Source of the DNA: a phage
Direction: 5' to 3' (one strand)
Sequence record: PZ179880.1
Length of the DNA: 64,000 nucleotides
The translations under genes were made by a program, and so were the position numbers. Positions 6,350-29,797 of the stretch are shown here, piece after piece; the first letter of the stretch is position 1, and the number at the start of each line of letters is the position of its first letter. The notes below the pieces were generated by a model, which was not told where the DNA came from, ran no database searches, and was given only the letters and a program-made list of their open reading frames with translations.

Positions 6350-6774
6350 TGCTTCTGATCCCTGAAACTCATGAATTAGTTCTCGAGAATGTCGAAGCAC
6401 TTATTCCTGAAGCACAGGGTCGCTTTGACGAATTGTCTTCTGCTTTAAATAAAGACGATATAAATACAATTGTCGAGAATATGCTTGATGATGAAACTGA
6501 TTTAGCAGTTGCATTAGCTTCTATTAATGAAAATATGCCGTTAAATGAATTCATTGTTAAGCACGTTTCAGCTCGTGGTGAAATTACACGTACTAAAGAC
6601 CGCAAAACACGCGAACGTAATGCATTTCAAACCACTGGGCTGTCTAAAGCAAAACGTAGACAAATTGCTCGCAAAGCTACCAAAACGAAGATTGCCAACC
6701 CAGCAGGTCAATCTCGTGCTCAGCGTAAGCGTAAAAAAGCTCTTAAACGCCGTAAAGCATTAGGATTAAGCTAA
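6349..6774 (+). CDS. 68: Prohead core protein gp68
   Basis: 141-aa ORF, start overlaps the gp67 stop; basic C-terminal tail; T4 order 67-68-21. Confidence 0.85.
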
Positions 6775-7412
6775 TGAATGAACCCCAATTACTAATTGAA
6801 ACTTGGGGTCAACCTGGCGAAATTATTGATGGTGTGCCAATGCTTGAATCTCATGATGGAAAAGACCTCGGTTTAAAACCTGGTTTATACATCGAAGGAA
6901 TATTCATGCAAGCGGAAGTTGTCAATAGAAATAAACGTCTTTATCCAAAACGCATATTAGAAAAAGCGGTAAAAGACTATATCAATGAGCAAGTTTTAAC
7001 AAAACAAGCTCTCGGAGAATTAAATCATCCTCCACGCGCTAATGTTGACCCGATGCAAGCCGCTATCATTATAGAAGATATGTGGTGGAAAGGAAATGAC
7101 GTATACGGACGAGCTCGTGTTATTGAAGGTGACCATGGTCCTGGAGATAAATTAGCAGCTAATATTCGTGCCGGATGGATTCCAGGAGTTTCTTCTCGTG
7201 GATTAGGTTCATTGACTGACACAAATAAAGGTTATCGTATCGTAAACGAAGGATTCAAATTAACTGTAGGTGTTGATGCAGTATGGGGTCCAAGTGCTCC
7301 AGATGCATGGGTAACTCCTAAGGAAATTACCGAATCACAGACGGCGGAAGCCGATACAAGTGCCGATGACGCCTATATGGCTCTCGCAGAGGCCATGAAA
7401 AAAGCGTTATAA
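6774..7412 (+). CDS. 21: Prohead core protease gp21
   Basis: 212-aa ORF, T4 gp21 length and position between 68 and 22. Confidence 0.93.
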   Translation: MNEPQLLIETWGQPGEIIDGVPMLESHDGKDLGLKPGLYIEGIFMQAEVVNRNKRLYPKRILEKAVKDYINEQVLTKQALGELNHPPRANVDPMQAAIIIEDMWWKGNDVYGRARVIEGDHGPGDKLAANIRAGWIPGVSSRGLGSLTDTNKGYRIVNEGFKLTVGVDAVWGPSAPDAWVTPKEITESQTAEADTSADDAYMALAEAMKKAL

Positions 7413-24057: not shown

Positions 24058-25022
24058 TGTATTCTTTAGAGGAATTTAATAATCAAGCAATAAACGCAGA
24101 TTTCCAACGTAATAATATGTTTAGCTGCGTTTTTGCGACAACTCCATCAACTAAAAGCTCTTCGTTGATAAGTTCAATTAGCAACTTTTCTTATAATAAC
24201 TTGGGCCTAAATTCAGATTGGTTAGGATTGACTCAAGGCGATATTAATCAGGGAATTACTACGCTAATTACTGCTGGCACACAAAAACTGATAAGAAAAT
24301 CAGGGGTTAGTAAATATCTTATTGGTGCCATGAGTCAACGTACAGTTCAAAGTTTATTAGGCTCATTTACAGTTGGTACATATTTAATTGACTTCTTTAA
24401 CATGGCATATAACTCATCTGGATTGATGATATACTCCGTAAAAATGCCAGAGAATAGATTATCCTATGAAACTGACTGGAACTATAATTCTCCTAATATT
24501 CGCATAACCGGAAGAGAATTAGACCCTTTGGTTATTTCATTTAGAATGGATTCAGAGTCGTGTAATTATCGTGCAATGCAAGACTGGGTTAACGCTGTTC
24601 AAGACCCAGTAACTGGACTGCGTGCTTTGCCGCAAGATGTCGAGGCAGACATTCAGGTTAATCTTCATGCTCGTAATGGATTACCTCATACTGCTGTGAT
24701 GTTCACTGGATGCATTCCAGTGTCAGTGAGCGCTCCTGAGTTATCATACGATGGAGATAACCAAATAACTACATTTGATGTTACTTTTGCGTATAGAGTC
24801 ATGCAGGCTGGAGCGGTTGATAGACAAGCTGCTCTTGAATGGCTTGAATCTGCTACTATAAACGGTATTCAAAGCGTTCTCGGAAATAGTGGAGGTGTTA
24901 CTGGACTATCTAATTCGCTTTCACGACTTAGTAGATTAGGAGGAACTGCAGGAAGCATTTCAAACATTAATACTATGACAGGAATTGTCAATTCGCAAAG
25001 TAAAATATTAGGAGCAATATAA
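24057..25022 (+). CDS. 54: Baseplate tail-tube initiator gp54
   Basis: 321-aa ORF; start overlaps the gp48 stop; terminator hairpin downstream. Confidence 0.92.
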   Translation: MYSLEEFNNQAINADFQRNNMFSCVFATTPSTKSSSLISSISNFSYNNLGLNSDWLGLTQGDINQGITTLITAGTQKLIRKSGVSKYLIGAMSQRTVQSLLGSFTVGTYLIDFFNMAYNSSGLMIYSVKMPENRLSYETDWNYNSPNIRITGRELDPLVISFRMDSESCNYRAMQDWVNAVQDPVTGLRALPQDVEADIQVNLHARNGLPHTAVMFTGCIPVSVSAPELSYDGDNQITTFDVTFAYRVMQAGAVDRQAALEWLESATINGIQSVLGNSGGVTGLSNSLSRLSRLGGTAGSISNINTMTGIVNSQSKILGAI

Positions 25023-25026
25023 CAAT

Positions 25027-25044
25027 GGGGACCGAAAGGTCCCC
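25027..25044. terminator. Bidirectional terminator between gene 54 (+) and the alt block (-)
   Basis: GGGGACC-GAAA-GGTCCCC followed by a T-run. Confidence 0.8.
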
Positions 25045-25050
25045 ATATTT

Positions 25051-25341
25051 TTATTTACGGAATGAAATAAAAGCAGCAACTGAAGCAACTAAACTGTCTT
25101 CAATATAAACTTCAATTTTTACCGGAGCTTCTGACTCAAATTTACCTGTTACTACACCTTGGAAAATGCTTTCAGTCTGTTCTGGCTTTGAAAAATTTTC
25201 AGAAGGAAAAATTCCGAACTTTTTATCTGTTCCAAAAATTTTGATAAATTCATCGTAAACCGCTTCATTAAAAGCGTTATCAGCAGGAATAACGCCTTCA
25301 ACTACGAGTTCTTGACCTAAAAAGCGCAAAGAAGATTTCAT
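25051..25341 (-). CDS. Hypothetical protein (T4 alt.-3 position)
   Basis: 96-aa ORF at the distal end of the leftward alt block, ending near the bidirectional terminator. Confidence 0.65.
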   Translation of the reverse strand: MKSSLRFLGQELVVEGVIPADNAFNEAVYDEFIKIFGTDKKFGIFPSENFSKPEQTESIFQGVVTGKFESEAPVKIEVYIEDSLVASVAAFISFRK

Positions 25342-25401: not shown

Positions 25402-27459
25402 CTACATCTTGAACTTTTTAGACATTCCGTTGATGTTAACCAAAGAAGCCAAGATTTGAGAAACTTCGTTTTCCTCTTCTTTTGATTCTTCTACAAGGAA
25501 TTGGTTAAATCCAGTCATTGGACGAACTTCACCAGTTTCCATCAGATGGTCACCATCATATACCGATTCTTCTAATTGTTCAGAAGGAGGAACGATTGTG
25601 CCTTCGATTAGATACTTATTATAAGCAGTTTCTTTCATCATGTACGTACTCACTTTATTAATCTTCAGCAAAATTCCACGCGGTAGAATAACTTCAGCTT
25701 CTGATGGAAATCCTGATAAATGACCTGGAACGATAACTTTGATTCGCTCAGCTCCTTTAATTACCATACCCACGCTAGTTTCAGCATCTTCATTGGCATA
25801 CGCAGAATGACTGCCCATATGCATCAAATCTTCAGCATCAACTGAACCTTCTCCTTCACCAGAAAATACTGTGCCGGAATCATCTAGGGCCATATAGTTT
25901 TTACCATACTCACCGAAGATATTTGGTTTAAGCGATGTGGATACGAAGTTCTTGAAATAGAACATTTTATTTTCAATATTATGACGTAAAGTTTTAAAGG
26001 TAACTTCTTGTCCACGGTAAAGTGTAGTTCCTGGAGGAAGAACTGATCCTTTGGCAAAGGCAGAATCCATTGTCTCGATGTGTTTAATAGCTCGTTCCAT
26101 ATATTCTTCACGAGTAGAATCTGGTTTACCTAAAAGGAATGAGTTCATTTCAACATATGAATCTGCACAATAATCTTCAATTACATCAGACTCAGCCTGA
26201 GTTAATCCTTTTGGAGTTACTTCAGTACTTGCATATTCATACGCTTGAGAAGCAGACTCATTAATCAATTTATAAACGCCATTCATGACAAATTGAATAA
26301 TAGCTACCTTTTCATCTGGCGTGGCTTTAGAACCTTTAACTAAATCATTGACAATTTTCTTAATAACATCAAAGCTATTAGAAATATTAATGTCAGCAAG
26401 ATCACTTAAAATTTTATCAGTTTTATAATCAAAAAATTCTTTATTCTTTAAATATTCTTGAGAACCTTGATATGTTATATCGCTCTGTAACTTGATAGAT
26501 GGATCACGTAAACGCGCATGAGCCAATGCAATATGATTTCGGAAGCTTTCTAATTCATAATCGCTAGATTTAAAACGGGAAGCACTTCTCATACCACCGA
26601 TAGCTCCTTTGCTGAAGTTTGAACCAACCTGAATAACGCCAGAGTTCATTGGTCCTTCTGCTTTATATACTGGAACTTTAGATTCAAACTCTTGATATTT
26701 CTTAGCAGCGAAGCTATCACCCTGAAGTGAAGCATCGACAGTAGAATATTGAGCTTGTGCTGCTAATCGACGACTAATTTTAGTTTTCTGAATAACAGCT
26801 TGATCCGTGCGCTTATCATTTTCTAAAGCAATAGAAGCAGCAACAGCGACAGCTTTAGGAACAGCATTGCCTGTTTTAACATCTACATAAACATCACCAA
26901 CCTTTGATTCAACTTTTGTGAATAACTCAGTTGAAATAGGAGGTACACCTGGAATGTCTTCTAAATTGGCATTTTTACGGTAAACCATAATATATGCATA
27001 TTTCTTATCATAGTCCCAGATTTCCTTTAAAAGAACATATCGACCTGCTCCTTTAGTACGTACTAAACGGTCGGCAATAACTTGCATTTGACGAGCTGCA
27101 CCGTTTGTTTTACTCTTTAGTACGCGGAATAAGCATGCGTCAATTTTGTACTGTTTCATTGTCTGAAGAGCAGTATCAAAAACCGCATTAATGACACCAA
27201 TTGGATTTCCACCCAAGTTTTTAAGTTTAACTAATGATAGTTTCTCATTAACACCTATCATTACGATATGCATCATTTTATCGCCTGGCTTAACGTTTTT
27301 ATTCGTATCACCGCCAGAGGTGTATGTACAAAATCTAAATCCAGGAAGCACGCTTTCTTCGCCTGCTTGAATAGCAAAAATTTGAGGTATTTTATGCTTA
27401 GGATTTAAGTTAACAACCGGCGCCGAAGCGCCGTCAAATAATTCTGTAATAAGTTCCAT
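25402..27459 (-). CDS. Alt-family mono-ADP-ribosyltransferase paralog (distal copy)
   Basis: 685-aa ORF; N-terminus MELITELFDG (capsid-targeting-like); C-terminal ART motifs YRGQ, FVSTSL, EAEVILPRG; 3-nt spacing from the upstream paralog. Confidence 0.85.
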   Translation of the reverse strand: MELITELFDGASAPVVNLNPKHKIPQIFAIQAGEESVLPGFRFCTYTSGGDTNKNVKPGDKMMHIVMIGVNEKLSLVKLKNLGGNPIGVINAVFDTALQTMKQYKIDACLFRVLKSKTNGAARQMQVIADRLVRTKGAGRYVLLKEIWDYDKKYAYIMVYRKNANLEDIPGVPPISTELFTKVESKVGDVYVDVKTGNAVPKAVAVAASIALENDKRTDQAVIQKTKISRRLAAQAQYSTVDASLQGDSFAAKKYQEFESKVPVYKAEGPMNSGVIQVGSNFSKGAIGGMRSASRFKSSDYELESFRNHIALAHARLRDPSIKLQSDITYQGSQEYLKNKEFFDYKTDKILSDLADINISNSFDVIKKIVNDLVKGSKATPDEKVAIIQFVMNGVYKLINESASQAYEYASTEVTPKGLTQAESDVIEDYCADSYVEMNSFLLGKPDSTREEYMERAIKHIETMDSAFAKGSVLPPGTTLYRGQEVTFKTLRHNIENKMFYFKNFVSTSLKPNIFGEYGKNYMALDDSGTVFSGEGEGSVDAEDLMHMGSHSAYANEDAETSVGMVIKGAERIKVIVPGHLSGFPSEAEVILPRGILLKINKVSTYMMKETAYNKYLIEGTIVPPSEQLEESVYDGDHLMETGEVRPMTGFNQFLVEESKEEENEVSQILASLVNINGMSKKFKM

Positions 27460-27462
27460 GAT

Positions 27463-29556
27463 TTATCCTTGAACGAACTTGTAAGGCATGTTTGTAATAT
27501 CTATGCAAGACGCAATAATTCCAAGAGATGATTCTACTTTCTGTTTAATATTTGATGAAACAAATGATGCAAAGTCAACTCTGTCTTCTATTTCAATATC
27601 ATCTGTCATTGCAACTACTTCGCCGGTTTCCATTAGACGGTCACCGTCATAAATTACTGATTCGGTGAGTTCTTCCGTAGTCATAACTTCAGCTTGAATG
27701 AGTTTTGTATTATTAGATGTTGTTCCGTCATTATTAGAAGCATCAGTTATTTTATTAACTTTGACCATCAATCCGCGTGGTAGAATAACTTCAGCTTCTG
27801 TTGCTATTCCGAGACTTCCTGGATATACAACATTAACTTTATGAGCTCCATCAATAGCCCATCCTATTTGAACTTTAACGTATTCAGGATTTTCTTTATA
27901 CGCTCTTATTTCGTTTGGATTAATAGTTATTCCTTCTTCATTTTTATCAACTGTTAATTCATTGCGAGCTTCTGGTTCTAAAAGACCGATACCAGCATGT
28001 GTAATTCCAAAACGTCCAAAAATGATAGGAGTTAAAGAAGTAGATACAAAATTTCTGAAATAGAACACTTTATTTTTAACTAGTGCTTCGTATATAGGAG
28101 CAGTCATACTTTGAGCACGATAAACTGTAATGCCTTCTGGTATACGGTCACCATTTTCAAAAGCTGAATCTAAATTATTTATCGCAGATTCAATTTCTTT
28201 TTCACTCATTACATCATATCGTTCTGGATTGTAGCGGCCTAAAAGAAGATTATTGATGTCAGTATATCCTGATCCACAATATTCTCTAATGCCGCGCTTT
28301 TGTGATGGAGTATATTTAGAACCATCACGGGCAATAGTAATATCAATCATTGGACCTGCACCAATTCCAGAAAAGCTATAAATCATTCGTTTGAGGAATT
28401 TAGTTTTTGCTGCGTTCCAGGAATTTTTAGTTATTTCTTCCCAGACTTCATCTGGCTGCCCTTTACGAGTTTTATTATGTTTATCAAGCCAATTATCTTT
28501 ATATTCTTCAAAGAATTGATTAACAGCTGCTGCGTATTTCTCTAAACATTTTATTGAAGTAGTTGGTTCATTTTTAATCGCATTAAGAATTACATCTTTA
28601 ATTTTTTCAGAAACTTCATTAACCTCACTTTTTGAAAAGAATTTATAATCATAGTGAAGTTCATCTGCAGTTCCTTCGGCAATAATTTTTGCTGCCTTAG
28701 TTTTAGAAGCTAATGAATTAATTCCAAGTTTCATTTCTTCTGCTTCAGGAATTAAAGGAGCTGTAGCAGGTTTATTGAAATTAGCTGCGGTAGATTCATA
28801 CTTCTGGAATAATTCACTTTCAAATCTAGAAGATTCTAATGATTGACTTTGCGCAATTGCTCTACGGGAAATTTTAACTTTAACGATTACAGCTTGGTCA
28901 GAACGTTTATCATTTTCTTGTGCAATAGATGCTGCAATTGCCTCATTTTTAGTTACTTGAGCTCCAGTATCTTTATTGATATAAACATCACCGACCTTCG
29001 ATTCAACTTTAGTAAAGAGCTCGGTACTAATTTCAGGAACTCCTGGAATGTCTTCTAATGATACATTTTTGCGATGTATAAGAATATATGCATACTTTTT
29101 ATCGTAATCCCAGAGTTCCTTAAGAAGGACGTATCTGCCACCTGAGCGACTACGAATAAGTCTATCAGCAATAACTTGAATTTGTCGAGCTTGACCGGCA
29201 GTTTTAGACTTAAGAATACGGAGCATGCAGGCATCAATTTTATACTGACGCATCGTCTGCATCGCAACAGTAAAAACTGAATTGATGTAATTAATTGGGC
29301 TTGGACCGAGACCTTTTAATTTAGCAATTGAACCTTTAGCAGTTAATGTAAAAGGAACAATATGCATCATTTTATCGCCCATTTTTAAATCGCGATTAGT
29401 ATCACCTCCAGATGTATAGGTACATAAACGAAAACCTGGTTGTTCAATTGCGTCATCAACATGAACTGAAAAAATTTGCGGTATTTTCTTCTTTGGATTT
29501 AAGTTTGTAATCGGAAGAGTAGTATCTTCGTCAAATAATTCTGTAATGAGTTCCAT
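27463..29556 (-). CDS. alt: Alt ADP-ribosyltransferase (copy proximal to gene 30)
   Basis: 697-aa from the second Met (MELITELFDE); ART motifs YRAQ, FVSTSL, EAEVILPRG; late promoter and RBS upstream; which copy is orthologous to T4 alt is uncertain. Confidence 0.85.
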   Translation of the reverse strand: MELITELFDEDTTLPITNLNPKKKIPQIFSVHVDDAIEQPGFRLCTYTSGGDTNRDLKMGDKMMHIVPFTLTAKGSIAKLKGLGPSPINYINSVFTVAMQTMRQYKIDACMLRILKSKTAGQARQIQVIADRLIRSRSGGRYVLLKELWDYDKKYAYILIHRKNVSLEDIPGVPEISTELFTKVESKVGDVYINKDTGAQVTKNEAIAASIAQENDKRSDQAVIVKVKISRRAIAQSQSLESSRFESELFQKYESTAANFNKPATAPLIPEAEEMKLGINSLASKTKAAKIIAEGTADELHYDYKFFSKSEVNEVSEKIKDVILNAIKNEPTTSIKCLEKYAAAVNQFFEEYKDNWLDKHNKTRKGQPDEVWEEITKNSWNAAKTKFLKRMIYSFSGIGAGPMIDITIARDGSKYTPSQKRGIREYCGSGYTDINNLLLGRYNPERYDVMSEKEIESAINNLDSAFENGDRIPEGITVYRAQSMTAPIYEALVKNKVFYFRNFVSTSLTPIIFGRFGITHAGIGLLEPEARNELTVDKNEEGITINPNEIRAYKENPEYVKVQIGWAIDGAHKVNVVYPGSLGIATEAEVILPRGLMVKVNKITDASNNDGTTSNNTKLIQAEVMTTEELTESVIYDGDRLMETGEVVAMTDDIEIEDRVDFASFVSSNIKQKVESSLGIIASCIDITNMPYKFVQG

Positions 29557-29579
29557 CATATCCTCTCTAGTGTTTATTC

Positions 29580-29587
29580 TATTTATA
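29580..29587 (-). promoter_or_regulatory. T4-type late promoter for alt
   Basis: Minus-strand TATAAATA ~25 nt upstream of the alt ATG, directly after a terminator hairpin. Confidence 0.65.
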
Positions 29588-29592
29588 AAATT

Positions 29593-29610
29593 AAAGGCCC
29601 GAAGGCCTTT
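29593..29610 (-). terminator. Terminator between the gene 30 operon and alt
   Basis: AAAGGCC-CGAA-GGCCTTT overlapping the stop of the 62-aa ORF. Confidence 0.7.
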
Positions 29611-29797
29611 AATAATCTATTGGTAAGAGAGTACGATATATTTCAAACTTTGGACCTTTTTCATAAGCATCAAATGTTTCTGTGAATTTATTATAAGCAT
29701 ATGCATCTATAAATTCAATCATAATTTGTGATACAGAAGTAGAAACATCTCCACCTTCTTTTTGAGCAACGACAATTGTTTCTAAGTAAGCTTTCAT
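29609..29797 (-). CDS. Hypothetical small protein
   Basis: 62-aa ORF; ATG overlaps the gene 30 stop (ATGA); followed by a terminator hairpin. Confidence 0.6.
   Translation of the reverse strand: MKAYLETIVVAQKEGGDVSTSVSQIMIEFIDAYAYNKFTETFDAYEKGPKFEIYRTLLPIDY

Follow-up and report, generated by a model that had tools for sequence, protein, structure and literature searches.

The 64,000-nucleotide (nt) stretch of DNA analysed here (sequence record PZ179880.1, hereafter the window) is a segment of a Tequatrovirus (T4-like) phage genome and carries, on its minus strand, two full-length genes of the Alt family of ADP-ribosyltransferases (ARTs) arranged in tandem, designated copy A and copy B. The locus is best explained as a late operon of two genes, each of which encodes a functional mono-ADP-ribosyltransferase of the Alt family. 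It occupies the alt slot between gene 30/alt.1 and alt.-3/gene 54, where alt is also found in T4 (gpAlt, NP_049811), and is accompanied by late-transcription signals. The two genes are located as follows:

25402-27459, minus strand: copy B, the second full-length Alt paralog, 685 amino acids (aa), ATG at 27457-27459
27463-29556, minus strand: copy A, the alt ortholog, a T2-type allele, 697 aa, stop codon at 27463-27465

A preliminary description made from the sequence had reported adjacent minus-strand open reading frames of 685 and 697 aa, 3 nt apart, both starting with MELITELFD and both keeping the R-S-E motifs, and all of this holds, with 3 nt between the copy A stop and the copy B ATG. 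Of the interval it had assigned, 25402-29610, the start is correct, while the end lies about 50 nt beyond the start codon of copy A and includes the late promoter and a terminator hairpin. Copy A begins with a double ATG (ATGATGG at 29554-29559, minus strand). Translation from the ATG at 29559 would give 698 aa with poor Shine-Dalgarno spacing; the spacing favours the second ATG (MELITE...), in agreement with the T4 annotation.

Both proteins match PHROG 802, 'Alt-like RNA polymerase ADP-ribosyltransferase', over their full length (A, E = 9e-272, residues 1-696; B, E = 1.4e-255, residues 1-685) and contain the Pfam domain PF03496, ADPrib_exo_Tox (1.8e-37 and 2.5e-20, respectively). Aligned end to end by BLASTP, they share 41% identity (E = 1e-158). 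Each can be divided into three main blocks:

28843-29538, minus strand: conserved N-terminal alpha/beta domain of A, residues 7-238
28303-28842, minus strand: variable central module of A, residues 239-418
27670-28302, minus strand: ART domain of A, residues 419-629, with R480, S505-T-S507 and E587-A-E589
26752-27441, minus strand: conserved N-terminal alpha/beta domain of B, residues 7-236, modelled by AlphaFold2 with a predicted local distance difference test (pLDDT) of ~85-97
26206-26751, minus strand: variable all-helical central module of B, residues 237-418, with model helices at 250-409
25576-26205, minus strand: ART domain of B, residues 419-628, with R482, S507-T-S509 and E587-A-E589

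Between A and B, the N-terminal domain (N-domain, residues 1-238) is 68% identical (hhalign E = 4e-101), the ART (~419-629, ~210 aa) 36% (E = 1.7e-52) and the C-terminal tail ~43%, the hhalign comparisons being made with small type-specific alignments of A-type and B-type proteins. For the centre (~239-418, ~180 aa) the identity is 18%, with an hhalign probability of 0.4% and E = 0.13, and the centres of A and B are without detectable homology, even at profile level. The preliminary description had proposed conserved ends flanking an unrelated centre; this pattern stands, but its block sizes do not, the centre being ~180 aa rather than ~300 and the ART ~210 aa rather than ~150.

The active-site motifs are found at YRAQ 479-482, STS 505-507 and EAEVILPRG 587-595 in A, and at YRGQ 481-484, STS 507-509 and EAEVILPRG 587-595 in B. 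Across 58 aligned family representatives, A and B among them, the four residues of the R-S-ExE site (R482, S507, E587 and E589 in B numbering) do not vary, and neither copy lacks the catalytic Arg, Ser or Glu. The two ARTs have a divergent insert between STS and ExE and differ in the residues of the ARTT loop as well. A T4 Alt mutation published as E577A abolishes ADP-ribosylation (PMC11404850). In NP_049811 numbering the motif of T4 Alt that aligns with ExE is E574-M-E576, and the published E577 is assumed here to be the second Glu of this motif with a one-residue numbering offset; the double ATG at the start of copy A may be the source of the E577 versus E576 offset in the literature.

An AlphaFold2 model of B built from the 58-sequence alignment (pLDDT 82.5, predicted TM-score 0.80) consists of an alpha/beta N-domain (1-~240), an all-helical centre (~250-470), an ART beta-core (480-622) and a terminal helix, with low-confidence stretches at 518-540 and 630-658. 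In a Foldseek comparison with the PDB, the ART core matches Vis, Certhrax, C3, CDTa, VIP2 and C2-I, with E-values down to 7e-8; the N-domain has a weak GNAT-like fold resemblance and no more. The structure model was made for B; for A, the ART fold is supported by the PF03496 match (1.8e-37). A sequence search of the PDB found no solved relative of B, no NCBIfam model matches A or B, and a Pfam search of the isolated N-domains and centres at E <= 10 returned nothing meaningful. The possibility that these are MuF-fused phage head ARTs was rejected, neither MuF (SPP1 gp7-like) nor any other Pfam family being found on the N-domains at E <= 10. The precomputed annotation of the protein clusters P0001-P0120 lists PF26846 besides PF03496 in all members; PF26846, absent from the local Pfam scan, is presumably an Alt N-terminal domain family.

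Both proteins carry motifs for the prohead protease gp21 at either end. The protease is itself encoded in the window, along with gp20, gp22 and gp23, and is the expected processor of A and B:

29539-29556, minus strand: N-terminal propeptide MELITE of A, with the gp21 motif ITE-6 (ITE at 4-6)
27466-27669, minus strand: LTE cleavage motif of A (630-632), aligned with LTE-619 of T4 Alt, followed by a 65-aa C-terminal propeptide
27442-27459, minus strand: N-terminal propeptide MELITE of B, with the gp21 motif ITE-6 (ITE at 4-6)
25405-25575, minus strand: LEE cleavage motif of B (629-631) at the aligned position, followed by a 54-aa C-terminal propeptide
6774-7412, plus strand: gp21 prohead protease, Pfam Peptidase_S77 (E = 1.5e-111), acting in trans

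By mass spectrometry, gp21 was shown to cut T4 Alt at ITE-6 and LTE-619, with the loss of 6 N-terminal and 63 C-terminal residues (PMC5694885), and the cut at ITE-6 is also given in the X15811 annotation. In both A and B a conserved SV(I)YDGDxLMETGE follows the C-terminal L-x-E motif. E6 and E631 (B numbering) are at least 90% conserved across the 58 family members, and the model of B is disordered exactly around the C-terminal cleavage motif (low pLDDT at 630-658). Processed like T4 Alt, mature A would measure 626 aa (70.1 kDa) and mature B 625 aa (69.1 kDa). The preliminary description had ascribed a capsid-targeting role to the two N-termini; this role is putative, and what the sequence supports is the retention, at both ends of either protein, of the motifs at which T4 Alt is cut.

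Both copies are under strong purifying selection. The ratio of non-synonymous to synonymous substitution rates (dN/dS; Nei-Gojobori method, window versus RB14) is 0.054 overall for B (N-domain 0, centre 0.107, ART 0.040) and 0.063 overall for A (N-domain 0.009, centre 0.143, ART 0); the N-domain of B differs by 21 synonymous and no non-synonymous changes. The centre is the least constrained part, yet it is far from neutral. The B centre hardly varies within Tequatrovirus: 402 phage records have it at 90% identity or more. A neutral linker was ruled out as an explanation of the centre by its dN/dS of 0.11-0.14 and by 93-100% conservation within each type. Taken with the motifs, these values agree with the view that both copies are intact, selected Alt-family ARTs with competent-looking catalytic sites.

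The genes appear to share one late promoter. The signals and neighbouring genes of the locus are as follows:

29593-29610, minus strand: terminator upstream of the alt operon, a hairpin of the sequence aaaggcc-ttcg-ggccttt followed by a run of T; it overlaps the stop codon of alt.1
29580-29587, minus strand: T4 late-promoter consensus TATAAATA, ~24 nt upstream of the copy A ATG, just past the hairpin
27466-27470, minus strand: Shine-Dalgarno sequence AAGGA for copy B, inside the last codons of A
25051-25341, minus strand: alt.-3, 96 aa, Pfam DUF5498, directly downstream of copy B
29609-29797, minus strand: alt.1, 62 aa, Pfam 'Phage_blade' (E = 7.5e-29)

The copy of TATAAATA at 29580-29587 is the sole one on the minus strand between 18761 and 35216; in the window as a whole the consensus has 18 matches, against 8.7 expected by chance. 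Copy B has no promoter of its own. The terminator upstream of alt is conserved in five of six T4-like genomes (Nolan 2006, PMC1524935). The minus-strand genes run in the order alt.-3, copy B, copy A, alt.1 and DNA ligase gene 30, and genes 29, 48 and 54 lie on the plus strand, ending at 25022. A strong bidirectional terminator hairpin is located at 25025-25046, between gene 54 and alt.-3. An early-type promoter for alt.-3 (TTTACA, 17 nt, TG-n-TATAAT) lies at 25401-25373 on the minus strand, starting 1 nt past the B stop. In T4, C-terminal extensions of Alt.-3 have been described as escape mutations against the CmdTAC defence system (PMC11618068).

Copy A has an N-domain 100% identical to that of T4 Alt, with a centre about 32-33% and an ART 67% identical. 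Copy B is a separate paralog, with 67-68% identity to T4 Alt in the N-domain, an unrelated centre and 36% identity in the ART. In T4, alt (682 aa) precedes a pair of short reading frames, alt.-1 and alt.-2, annotated as 'old duplication of the first part of gene alt'. The alt.-1 and alt.-2 peptides are near-identical to residues 1-55 and 62-116 of window B, not to alt, and PHROGs 23015 and 15247, which were built on them, match B (2e-40 and 3e-38) better than A (1e-21 and 2e-19). The T4 remnant is ~95% identical in DNA to the first 347 nt of B (codons 1-116), with one A missing from an A-run near codon 55, which produces a -1 frameshift. The remaining difference is a deletion:

25422-27111, minus strand: segment of copy B deleted in T4, 1.69 kb, between the 9-bp repeats CTAAAGAGT and CTAAAAAGT

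On these alignments, alt.-1 and alt.-2 are the decayed 5' end of the full-length paralog B and not a partial duplication of alt, and the deletion is microhomology-mediated. T4 has no second intact copy, a point on which the preliminary description had been unsure. In 91 records, among them T4 strains and natural isolates such as ACG-C40, a 141-nt probe over the T4 junction gives one unbroken match; in the other ~400 records the match is split, as expected with an intact B. Given these counts and the identity of the remnant to B, T4 is one of a minority of phages from which copy B was recently lost. Cluster P0005 (624 aa, 36 member sequences) corresponds to B residues 62-685 and looks like a frameshift-only intermediate. 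Two more clusters of truncated B-type proteins, P0008 (158-685) and P0010 (271-685), point to additional independent disruptions or else may reflect assembly errors in the A-run.

A megablast search with the locus retrieved 545 phage records, 379 of them covering at least 80% of it, and many are already annotated 'Alt-like RNA polymerase ADP-ribosyltransferase (x2)'. The same layout of 697-aa and 685-aa proteins is present in PP01, RB14 and the classical phage T2. The intact two-copy state occurs in about 400 Tequatrovirus records and is the majority state in the genus, so the duplication is less unusual than the preliminary description had implied; both genes carry Alt-like names in RefSeq, and a paper of 2006 already noted alt paralogy, for T4 alt.-1/alt.-2, RB49 and 44RR (PMC1524935). 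The tandem pair as such is not new. Two main alleles occupy position A, their centres only about 33% identical to each other; counted at 90% identity or above, 320 records have the window/T2 type and 174 that of T4. Overall, 1,819 occurrences of the N-domain were counted across 1,202 phage records, the domain being present twice per genome in Tequatrovirus and Dhakavirus and once in RB69-like phages and in Klebsiella and Acinetobacter T4-likes; proteomics of one Klebsiella phage reports a single ART. Escherichia phage fDHCT2 (L004 5251-11511) has three tandem full-length alt genes (694, 681 and 707 aa) with 3-nt spacing. Its middle copy contains a fourth type of centre, unrelated to the A, B and T4 types, and an N-domain 88% identical to that of the third copy. 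Three N-domain places were also observed in Pseudomonas phage PspYZU05.

Among the 58 representatives, all 1653 pairs are detectable by BLASTP in the N-domain and all in the ART, compared with 27 of the 1653 in the centre, and the centre sequences fall into 43 groups. In an exhaustive representative search many members match in two stretches with the centre left unaligned, and the B centre was not found outside B-type Alt proteins. N-domains group by genus, with 68% identity between A and B, 64% between the Dhakavirus copies 1 and 2, and ~42-47% across genera. The centre, ART and tail show the opposite pattern and group by paralog type: window A shares 66% of its centre and 83% of its ART with dhabil copy 1, and window B shares 46% and 58% with dhabil copy 2. 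In a 12-protein alignment the centre of A is 66% identical to Dhakavirus-type copy 1 and 32% to T4 Alt; for the ART of A, identity to Dhakavirus-type copy 1 is 83-94%. The A/B pair is retained in both Tequatrovirus and Dhakavirus, and orthology tracks the effector part.

At the nucleotide level, window A is 93-98% identical to T4 alt over codons 1-240, drops abruptly to 43-64%, and returns to 82-91% in the tail. These abrupt breakpoints, together with the grouping by genus in one part and by type in the others, indicate that centre and ART modules have been exchanged between genera. The ART of window A is 90-98% identical to fDHCT2 copy 1 over codons 479-598 (27760-28120) and 82-98% over codons 399-638; the N-domain of fDHCT2 shares only 38-61% nucleotide identity with that of the window, and fDHCT2 copy 1 differs from that of its close relative dhabil specifically in the ART. 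This points to a recent exchange between genera that involved only the catalytic module. The N-domains of A and B share just 64-71% nucleotide identity, which rules out a recent gene conversion between them in this genome. A role of the N-domain as a generic delivery module on other cargo was also considered and rejected, since the candidates P0201, P0226 and P0227 carry divergent ARTs. One metagenomic protein, P0217 (541 aa), has an Alt N-domain at 1-160 (~25% identity) followed by ~380 aa without a recognisable ART or Pfam domain, and could represent the N-domain attached to a different cargo.

About 40 copies of T4 Alt are present in the capsid and are ejected with the DNA. By analogy, A and B are probably both packaged and injected, arginine-specific ARTs, which would act on different sets of host targets. 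The single late promoter would give a bicistronic mRNA, with B translated from its own Shine-Dalgarno sequence, 3 nt past the A stop. Pre-proteins of ~76-78 kDa would enter the prohead core and be trimmed by gp21 after Glu6 (ITE) and after Glu632 in A or Glu631 in B, yielding mature forms of ~70 and ~69 kDa. These would be ejected together with the DNA and, in the new host, would ADP-ribosylate arginines in an NAD+-dependent manner. Arginine specificity is predicted because the E-x-E motif implies it. The target sets should differ because the centres are unrelated and the ARTs, 36% identical, have different inserts and ARTT-loop residues; the centre may be the target-recognition module. T4 Alt modifies RNA polymerase alpha and inactivates the MazF toxin, and so provides a precedent for a paralog with different targets among host or defence proteins.

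Several points weigh against the proposal of two injected enzymes with different targets. No virion proteomics or enzymology of copy B was found in the open-access papers searched, and its packaging, cleavage and injection are presumed from the motifs it shares with T4 Alt. The centre may have a regulatory function or act as a structural spacer instead, and the centres of A and B may share a fold, their non-homology being at the sequence level and the model being that of B. B is dispensable in some backgrounds, as seen from the deletion in T4 and 90 other records and from the truncated forms. A Glu at position 10 in A and T4 Alt (LFDE) is absent from B (LFDG), a loss that may not matter because the mapped cut of T4 Alt is at Glu6.

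B might alternatively be a redundant or dosage copy, performing the job of A on RNA polymerase alpha and the same other targets, its centre a tolerant helical spacer and its benefit a larger or safer injected dose. The catalytic motifs, architecture, promoter and processing motifs common to both copies would fit such a role, as would the non-lethal loss of B in the T4 lineage. A dosage duplicate, however, is expected to stay similar or to be homogenised, whereas the centres are non-homologous and the ARTs 36% identical, with each type strongly conserved under purifying selection and both types kept as a pair across two genera; redundancy is therefore considered unlikely. It is quite unlikely, too, that B is no injected effector at all, acting late in the producing cell or serving mainly as a structural component of the prohead core with a secondary ART activity. 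T4 Alt has been described as also being an important phage core protein (PMC11404850), the expression signals are late, and grouping of the N-domain by genus is what would be expected of a part fitting its own phage head. Yet the catalytic residues of B are invariant with an ART dN/dS of 0.04, it retains the cleavage motifs of both propeptides, as does T4 Alt, which is injected, and T4 assembles heads without B. The T4-type deletion in 91 records and the frameshift-only or truncated variants (P0005, P0008, P0010) might suggest that B is a decaying, effectively non-functional duplicate heading to the T4 state. This is highly improbable: the reading frame is intact in ~400 records, all catalytic residues are invariant, and decay is strongly disfavoured by the selection data (dN/dS 0.054; 0 non-synonymous versus 21 synonymous changes in the N-domain).

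The window proteins resemble T4 Alt in overall architecture, the R-S-ExE motif, the ITE-6 and LTE cleavage motifs and the late promoter. With the C2/C3-like R-S-E toxins (Vis, Certhrax, C3bot, VIP2, CDTa, C2-I) they share the ART fold and the R/STS/ExE active site at a sequence identity of only 12-20%. Unlike these toxins, Alt proteins have a ~240-aa N-domain, a helical centre and protease-removed propeptides, and are delivered by phage DNA ejection rather than through a toxin translocon; the duplicated ART N-domain of VIP2 has no counterpart in them. T4 ModA and ModB belong to the same Alt/VIP2 clade of R-S-E chemistry, but are ~200-aa early, non-packaged proteins encoded at a different locus, without N-domain or propeptides. 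In its evolution the alt locus is reminiscent of polymorphic toxins (Rhs/CDI-type), which combine a constant delivery part with recombining effector modules, sometimes in tandem arrays. This is an analogy and not membership: secretion-system domains are absent from Alt, and the variable part comprises the centre and the ART, not the C-terminal tip alone. No cognate immunity gene lies downstream of either copy, A being followed by the B ATG after 3 nt and B by alt.-3 with its own early-type promoter.

B is an uncharacterised member of the known Alt family. Reviews and experiments frame T4 host takeover around three ARTs, Alt, ModA and ModB. The open-access papers searched were found to contain no report that the T4 fragments stem from a full-length conserved paralog B by a defined frameshift and deletion, none of a B centre unrelated to that of Alt, and none of a genus-specific N-domain combined with exchangeable centre and ART modules. 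A broader and more tentative view, which is possible but at present doubtful, is that the alt locus is an array of one to three polymorphic injected effectors. The genus-specific N-domain would serve in delivery and as a recombination arm, and the centre, as specificity module (at least 43 unrelated groups), and the ART would be swapped between phages and even genera, driven by competition with host targets or defence proteins; the locus would in this view be the phage equivalent of polymorphic toxins. The T-even ARTs would then number four, B joining Alt, ModA and ModB with host targets of its own. One of these might be a defence protein, in the manner of MazF for T4 Alt, and B would have been missed because T4 deleted it.

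T4 is thus atypical: ~80% of sequenced Tequatroviruses, T2 among them, have another Alt paralog of full length that is maintained by selection, apparently packaged, and unrelated to Alt in its middle module. The T4 annotation is accordingly corrected, alt.-1/alt.-2 representing a deleted paralog rather than a partial alt duplication. The mosaic pattern marks the likely delivery parts of Alt (N-domain and propeptides) and its likely specificity parts (centre and ART loops), a map that is useful for engineering T4 heads as protein-delivery vehicles. If B does have its own targets, some T-even phage activity within the first seconds of infection has so far gone unexamined.

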